Assembly: GCF_988243305.1 (NCBI RefSeq) | Contig: NZ_OZ547136.1 | Strand: one strand, 5' to 3' | Length of the DNA: 64,000 bases | In this document: positions 36,090 to 36,563 of the stretch, piece by piece | Layout: every line of letters starts with the position of its first letter | How positions within the stretch are numbered: position 1 is the first letter of the stretch | Position numbers and translations under genes: made by a program | The notes under the pieces: generated by a model | The model's database searches: none | Told to the model about the DNA's origin: nothing | The model's input: the letters and a program-made list of their open reading frames with translations, nothing else

Positions 36090-36563
36090 TCAGTCGATGA
36101 TGCGCATAATGGCGCTGCATTCCGGATGCTGCAGGGCGTAATCCCGCAGCCGGTAATAATGGACCGTCATGGCATAACACTCCGTACGACAGGCATGATG
36201 ACTGTACGTCATCAGACAGGCAGCAATGCCGGCAGCTTCCGGACTCATTTCAGCGCGGTTACCGTTCATGGCATTGAACAGTACCCATGTTTCGTCATCA
36301 TCGTCATCCGGTTCGGGTGCCATAAATGCCCCGCCGTTGTTCAGGGTGTACAGATTCCAGATACCACCGCAGTAGTCTTCGCACAGACGGTCCATCCAGC
36401 CGAAGACACGGGGCTCCAGGGTCACCCACTGTGGAATGAGGCCAAAGTGCTGCGGCCAGAAGCTGATGCGCTGTTCATCAGGGACGAGGGTGGCAACCAG
36501 TTGTTGCAGGTCAGTCTCCGGTGCACAGGCTGAAGAGGTGGTGTTCTGAGACAATGTTTTCAT
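36090..36563 (-). CDS. Antirestriction protein (KlcA/ArdB-like, YfjX/YafX family)
   Basis: ATG 36563 (MKTLSQNTTSSACAPETDLQQLVATLVPDEQRISFWPQHFG...); acidic DDDDDE patch. Confidence 0.85.
   Translation of the reverse strand: MKTLSQNTTSSACAPETDLQQLVATLVPDEQRISFWPQHFGLIPQWVTLEPRVFGWMDRLCEDYCGGIWNLYTLNNGGAFMAPEPDDDDDETWVLFNAMNGNRAEMSPEAAGIAACLMTYSHHACRTECYAMTVHYYRLRDYALQHPECSAIMRIID

Follow-up and report, generated by a model that had tools for sequence, protein, structure and literature searches.

The locus at positions 36090 to 36563 of the window (the whole 64,000-nucleotide stretch of DNA that was analysed) raises the question of which gene is located there, which genes accompany it, and what its presence says about the candidate systems nearby. 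The preferred reading, given a probability of roughly 0.9, is that this locus carries ardB in intact form on a degraded CP4-type island, with a RadC-like gene downstream, heading an operon-like run that also contains DUF987 and CbeA/CbtA genes. The features of this block, in the order in which they follow one another on the minus strand, are:

37823-37996, minus strand, DUF905 gene
37772-37801, minus strand, terminator-like hairpin with a 13-pair stem and a T run after it, upstream of DUF932 (consensus scan only)
36902-37723, minus strand, DUF932 gene (YfjQ/YafZ family; Pfam PF06067, E = 7e-52)
36657-36902, minus strand, 81-codon cysteine-rich open reading frame (6 Cys) between DUF932 and ardB
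36090-36563, minus strand, ardB, ArdB/KlcA antirestriction family (Pfam PF03230, PHROG 10132, PDB 2WJ9)
36075-36089, minus strand, 15-nt spacer between ardB and the radC-like gene, reading TGA ATGGAGAGAAGTACA ATG and containing a GGAGAG ribosome-binding sequence
35598-36074, minus strand, RadC-like JAB/JAMM-domain gene, 158 aa (Pfam PF04002, TIGR00608, PDB 2QLC)
35308-35529, minus strand, DUF987 gene (YeeT/YpjJ/YkfH family; Pfam PF06174, E = 3e-38)
34855-35232, minus strand, CbeA-family type IV antitoxin gene (Pfam PF06154, E = 2e-53)
34479-34808, minus strand, CbtA-family toxin gene, 109 aa (Pfam PF06755, E = 8e-61)
33946-34434, minus strand, DUF5983 gene
33729-33926, minus strand, DUF957-like gene
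33675-33701, minus strand, terminator-like hairpin after the DUF957-like gene (consensus scan only)
32796-33644, minus strand, DUF4942 gene

Positions 36090 to 36563 correspond exactly to one coding sequence of 157 codons on the minus strand (ATG at 36563-36561, TGA at 36092-36090). A Shine-Dalgarno-like sequence (AAGGA) is present 9 nt before the ATG at 36563. An upstream GTG at 36635 is an alternative start that would yield a protein of 181 aa, 176/181 identical to 2WJ9. The 181-aa reading is the form crystallised in 2WJ9, whereas RefSeq annotates the nearest E. coli copy (BR1220) with the 157-aa form, which is also given in Table 1 of PMC2836571. The protein matches the Pfam family PF03230 "Antirestriction protein" with 127.5 bits (curated cut-off 25 bits; E = 2.2e-37) over the full profile (1-92) and the PHROG 10132 "anti-restriction protein" with an E-value of 1e-63. 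It is identical to PDB 2WJ9 at 154 of 157 residues (98%, E = 3e-110), and its residues 17-157 align with the KlcA structure 2KMG (E = 3e-21); no NCBIfam model matched it. These matches are far beyond chance and assign the predicted protein to the ArdB family, as the sequence-only reading had done in calling the gene KlcA/ArdB-like. The sequence identity also predicts the ArdB/KlcA fold seen in 2WJ9 and 2KMG. The predicted protein has the family's other traits, namely that it is small and acidic (pI 4.58) and carries the conserved C-terminal Asp; the C-terminus ...IMRIID is kept in all paralogues compared. Deletion of the terminal Asp (D141) abolished the activity of R64 ArdB (cited in PMC12429846).

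The nearest characterised relative is ArdB of E. coli CFT073 (ORF14 of PAI II, NP_752219), the protein of 2WJ9, which is likewise an acidic protein of 157 aa that ends in ...MRIID. The two proteins differ by three substitutions (D18G, L26I, D63N), and the CFT073 gene lies in another strain at another chromosomal junction. By every criterion checked from its sequence, the window protein is a family member and essentially the ArdB of CFT073.

The function of close relatives has been studied in vivo as well as in vitro. ArdB-CFT, YafX and YfjX produced 10- to 9250-fold restriction alleviation in vivo, as measured by lambda plating on type IA-ID hosts, and little or negligible anti-modification (PMC2836571, Table 2). 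A restriction-alleviation assay with the cloned gene, which had been proposed as the check for this locus, is thus already in the literature for a protein with 3 residue changes out of 157 (PMC2836571). Purified ArdB-type proteins did not inhibit EcoKI in vitro, and their fold is not that of a DNA mimic (PMC2836571). ArdB of R64 is independent of the recognition site and leaves type III restriction and BREX unaffected (PMC10149784). In vitro, it slowed EcoR124I and EcoAI only partly (PMC10149784, PMC12429846), and the authors of that work suggest an additional participant. R64 ArdB also prevents BlihIA cleavage in vitro (PMC12429846).

Taken as a mechanism, ArdB, a small acidic protein that is no DNA mimic, would prevent type I enzymes of all four families from cleaving DNA but not from methylating it. 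Incoming island DNA protected in this manner would survive until it is methylated in the new host. ArdB most plausibly acts directly on the restriction complex, irrespective of the site recognised; the view with the best current support is a direct inhibition of low efficiency. By analogy with the near-identical and related proteins, the window ArdB may be expected to do likewise.

Several known systems resemble this gene in part. KlcA of the IncP-1 plasmid pBP136 (2KMG) and KlcA/ArdB of pKM101, R64 and pOXA-48 belong to the same Pfam family; the plasmid proteins also block type I restriction and in this respect are alike in function to close relatives of the window ArdB. However, they are only about 30-37% identical to it, and their genes are located in leading or kil-kor regions, generally without a RadC-like gene after them. 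YfjX (LfgA, CP4-57) and YafX (CP4-6) of E. coli K-12 sit at the same point of the same gene order, and each alleviates restriction in vivo, whereas in sequence they are only 71% and 69% identical to the window ArdB, respectively, with a length of 152 aa and a different N-terminus. The DNA mimics ArdA and T7 Ocr are alike in outcome, as they too are small acidic proteins that shield incoming DNA from type I restriction. Unlike these, ArdB has an unrelated fold, does not mimic DNA, leaves modification unblocked, acts independently of the site, and is inactive on BREX and type III systems.

The sequence-only reading had placed a RadC-like gene together with the antirestriction gene at 36090-36563. 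The RadC-like identity is upheld, but ardB fills that stretch and the RadC-like gene lies outside it, 15 nt downstream. The RadC-like protein matches Pfam PF04002 "RadC-like JAB domain" with 152.7 bits (cut-off 22.1; E = 5e-45), TIGR00608 with 150.7 bits (above the cut-off of 133.85) and PDB 2QLC with an E-value of 7e-25. An alternative start, ATG at 36089, would give a protein of 163 aa. The housekeeping RadC/YicR (NF000642 / PRK00024) shares the C-terminal JAB domain with the window protein, but the window protein falls outside the RadC/YicR equivalog: its score against the equivalog model NF000642 is 161.4 bits, below the cut-off of 180, and the match is limited to profile positions 88-211 of 212. 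Since the N-terminal ~87 residues are absent and the score is below the equivalog cut-off, the protein is not an orthologue of RadC/YicR; by sequence, it belongs with the short forms found on mobile elements, in which the N-terminal part of housekeeping RadC is missing.

The JAMM motif HxHx7Sx2D of the RadC-like protein is intact (HNHPSGEVTPSKAD, residues 107-120), the upstream Glu of HPRE is present, and both are kept in all homologues compared (n = 5-6). The protein is 98% identical to K-12 YeeS (CP4-44), 82% to YkfG (CP4-6) and 72% to YfjY/LfgB (CP4-57), all of which have the same JAMM spacing and the same downstream DUF987, antitoxin and toxin genes. Unlike the window gene, yeeS is left without an ardB partner, and its first 10 codons are gone. 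The protein is most likely a JAMM zinc hydrolase (metallohydrolase), with a peptidase favoured. Among YeeS, YkfG and LfgB, protease activity has been reported only for LfgB, which when purified degrades the antitoxin MqsA; this claim comes from one study with overnight incubation (PMC10846083). Comparative genomics has instead predicted that the RadC-type JAB domains of conjugative elements act in nucleic-acid processing (PMC5512222).

The 15-nt gap between ardB and the radC-like gene is the same in the RefSeq annotation of E. coli BR1220, and the layout of the spacer is typical of translational coupling, so that the radC-like gene is probably coupled to ardB. From this spacing, and by analogy with the K-12 genes yfjXY-ypjJ-yfjZF (lfgABCDE), ardB and the radC-like gene would head an operon-like run with DUF987 and CbeA/CbtA. 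The five K-12 genes form the lfgABCDE operon (PMC10846083). The gaps between the genes from DUF932 to DUF957 are 15-93 nt, or there is a 1-nt overlap, and terminator-like hairpins were found only at 37801-37772 and 33701-33675, flanking the run. These hairpins are likely the upstream and downstream limits of the ardB transcription unit. A sigma-70 promoter scan yielded four sites compared with 5.9 expected by chance, none of them convincing, and no structured RNA matched Rfam at the gathering threshold in the 32000-50000 region.

DUF932 is the first long gene past the upstream hairpin at 37772-37801, and its product is ~75% identical to K-12 YfjQ and YafZ. The start of the 81-codon open reading frame overlaps the DUF932 stop by 1 nt. 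Its protein matched no family in Pfam, NCBIfam or PHROGs and is 100% identical in E. coli BR1220, where it is annotated as hypothetical. The frame is absent from all 13 IMG/VR loci (13/13), in which the gap between DUF932 and ardB is only ~90 nt. K-12 YkfF occupies the same position, but its equation with this open reading frame was rejected because no similarity was found.

DUF987 is the third gene of the run headed by ardB and the radC-like gene, and its product is 96% identical to K-12 YeeT. The antitoxin is 91% identical to K-12 CbeA. The toxin gene cbtA carries a nonsense codon (…TRSHY*) 16 codons before the stop of the 125-aa BR1220 copy (…SHYRTVNDIILGKHPEAKQ); the toxin may still be active, as 109 aa is the length of the natural K-12 paralogue YpjF. 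The toxin-antitoxin neighbours described from the sequence alone are therefore present in the form of DUF987 (35308-35529), CbeA (34855-35232) and CbtA (34479-34808).

A plus-strand open reading frame of 307 codons (35610-36533), antisense to the radC-like gene and ardB, was considered as a gene and rejected as a by-product of codon usage, since it is not conserved in the paralogues. The longest stop-free run of this frame shortens to 266 aa in BR1220, to 136-155 aa in the K-12 paralogues and to 82 aa in Klebsiella, and the pattern of substitutions at 35610-36533 tracks the minus-strand frames.

The 2.5-kb stretch from DUF932 to DUF987 has matches in 4906 of 5426 complete E. coli genomes (~90%), in a median of three places per genome, nearly all of which are chromosomal. 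For the island, the closest complete E. coli genome is that of BR1220, whose identity is 97.9% across the 2.5-kb core and 98.3% across 23 kb. The same gene order is found in the K-12 cryptic prophages CP4-57 (yfjX/lfgA, yfjY/lfgB, ypjJ, yfjZ and ypjF) and CP4-6 (yafX, ykfG, ykfH, yafW, ykfI), whereas the CP4-44 version (yeeS, yeeT, cbeA and cbtA) is without ardB. Judged by sequence, the window copy downstream of ardB belongs to the CP4-44 lineage. Among the IMG/VR loci with a full-length ArdB relative (n = 13, 61-92% identity), ardB is followed by the radC-like gene after 18-79 nt in every case (13/13), and most of these loci go on with DUF987, CbeA and CbtA. The order of the CP4-type module (ardB, radC-like, DUF987, cbeA-like and cbtA-like, all on one strand) was thus found in comparison with K-12, BR1220 and IMG/VR. 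A Klebsiella megaplasmid also carries DUF932, ArdB, RadC, antitoxin and toxin genes in the same order.

Homologues of ArdB/KlcA were found in 4674 of 72,556 plasmid records, and 3555 of these 4674 (76%) are conjugative. Both the ArdB/KlcA and the RadC families are common on plasmids, usually not adjacent to each other. The pOXA-48-type IncL plasmids contain a JAB gene, DUF3085, DUF4942, hha, klcA and ssb in one region beside mobA/traI, so that distant homologues of ArdB and of the RadC-like protein are both located near the relaxase genes; the RadC-like JAB gene and klcA are 6.6 kb apart there. In one such plasmid, NZ_OW995945.1, the region has largely the same families as the window island in another order, and the RadC-like JAB gene directly adjoins the DUF3085 gene. 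A possible complex of the RadC-like JAB and DUF3085 families has been suggested (PMC12826799). A phage origin of the block was rejected because only two of 50,697 phage records matched, one of them a fragment of 3.2 kb with no annotation. Its home is on islands and plasmids rather than in bona fide phages. The description of the pair as typical of mobile-element backbones stands for one lineage of enterobacterial integrative islands; on plasmids, the two genes are usually apart.

The island itself is an integrative genomic island of CP4-44/CP4-57 type in a degraded state, interrupted by IS1 and IS66 elements. To its left are ulaA-D, followed by a fragment (MLSKQIPLGIYEKALPAG...) that, by its likeness to the UlaE N-terminus, is probably the start of ulaE and breaks off at ~32590 (window positions 32535-32812). 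An AT-rich stretch of 200 bp runs from the ulaE break into the DUF4942 end of the island. The break and the AT-rich stretch suggest that a truncated ulaE, not a tRNA site, is what the island, or some rearranged part of it, is joined to. Three tandem tRNA-Gly(GCC) genes are present at 1926-2345 on the plus strand. To the right of the block are an IS1, a trio of patatin, YjcZ(RdcB)-like and dynamin-like genes, a GTPase gene, a YagK/YfjJ-type gene and two IS66 transposase genes, with the following positions:

38562-39259, minus strand, IS1 (insA/insB frames), between the DUF905 side and the patatin gene
39474-40544, minus strand, patatin-like phospholipase gene
40541-41446, minus strand, YjcZ/RdcB-like gene, overlapping each neighbour by 4 nt
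41443-43827, minus strand, dynamin-family GTPase gene, 794 aa
44027-44962, minus strand, second GTPase gene
51095-53730, minus strand, two consecutive IS66-family transposase open reading frames, the second (52630-53730) truncated within the DDE domain

E. coli BR1220 has the same IS1 insertion, beside a gene fragment, and the patatin, YjcZ-like, dynamin and GTPase set (39474-44962) is also present in that strain. PADLOC gave only weak LeoA/LeoBC/phospholipase-effector matches for the dynamin, GTPase and patatin neighbours and nothing for ArdB, the RadC-like protein, DUF932 or DUF4942. The sialic-acid catabolism cluster at the right end (53500-64000) is 99.9% identical to that of CFT073 and other strains. 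The core segment 1-25000 (mutL-purA-rnr region) has a best identity of 98.7% among the 5426 complete E. coli genomes. The two values together suggest a somewhat divergent Escherichia or Shigella-like lineage with recently shared island DNA. No integrase was seen within the 64,000-nt window; with the IS insertions and the truncated left end, the island looks immobile in the window. It may therefore be that selection no longer acts on antirestriction.

The reading frames of ardB and the radC-like gene are full length in comparison with characterised relatives. The dN/dS values (Nei-Gojobori, against BR1220 and the K-12 paralogues) are 0.07-0.14 for ardB and 0.05-0.13 for the radC-like gene, ranges that cover every comparison where dS could be estimated. 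Values this low show purifying selection on both genes, which are not decaying.

Strong purifying selection on chromosomal copies in apparently immobile islands fits a benefit to the host, and one alternative, which is unlikely as the whole account of the locus, is that the block has been domesticated for a stress response of the resident host. Under this explanation, the RadC-like protease would degrade the antitoxin/repressor MqsA and so derepress rpoS, and ardB would merely be co-transcribed. Deletion of lfgB (yfjY) sensitised K-12 to H2O2, acid and heat, and the phenotype was complemented; MqsA binds the operon promoter, and purified LfgB degrades MqsA (PMC10846083). However, the window protein shares only 72% identity with LfgB and falls in the YeeS lineage instead, and the lfgA deletion phenotype could not be complemented (PMC10846083). 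Of the 4674 plasmid records with an ArdB homologue, moreover, 3555 are conjugative, which points to a primary role related to transfer. A domesticated stress role, as in the lfg operon, is plausible as an additional role.

The invariant adjacency of ardB and radC, with spacing that fits translational coupling, also allows for a two-part counter-defence, in which the JAMM enzyme is the "additional participant" that, for example, disables HsdR proteolytically or processes stalled restriction complexes. ArdB works in cells but is inactive or only partly active in vitro, a difference for which the authors of that work suggested a missing factor, and the K-12 reference genome has three RadC-like paralogues, so that K-12-derived assay hosts retaining them could supply such a factor. 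If true, this arrangement would explain why ArdB/KlcA is strong in cells and weak or without effect on purified type I enzymes. It is nevertheless very improbable, as R64 ArdB alone blocks BlihIA in vitro, plasmid KlcA/ArdB genes are usually without an adjacent RadC gene, and CP4-44 of K-12 keeps yeeS without ardB. Least probable of all is that the two genes are remains of a cryptic element, decaying and without function: the island is IS-ridden, cbtA has a premature stop relative to BR1220 and ulaE is truncated at the junction, but both frames are full length with intact motifs and dN/dS values of 0.05-0.14.

The preferred reading, an intact ardB at the head of the run on a degraded CP4-type island, describes a gene copy and a block that are real but ordinary, and already known. 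Their discovery value is slight, as the protein is almost the same as an antirestriction protein already characterised in structure and function, and ~90% of E. coli genomes have the block. The sequence-only reading had taken the pair as support for a context of conflict with host or phage defence; as an interpretation this is supported, but a block that nearly all E. coli carry tells little in particular about the candidate systems next to it, for which PADLOC matches were weak. For annotation, the locus marks a CP4-like integrative-island backbone, and the toxin-antitoxin pair is the ordinary CbeA/CbtA pair of that backbone. The interest that is left is family-wide, not particular to this locus, and concerns the mechanism of ArdB and the short RadC-like JAMM proteins, for which one substrate has been reported.
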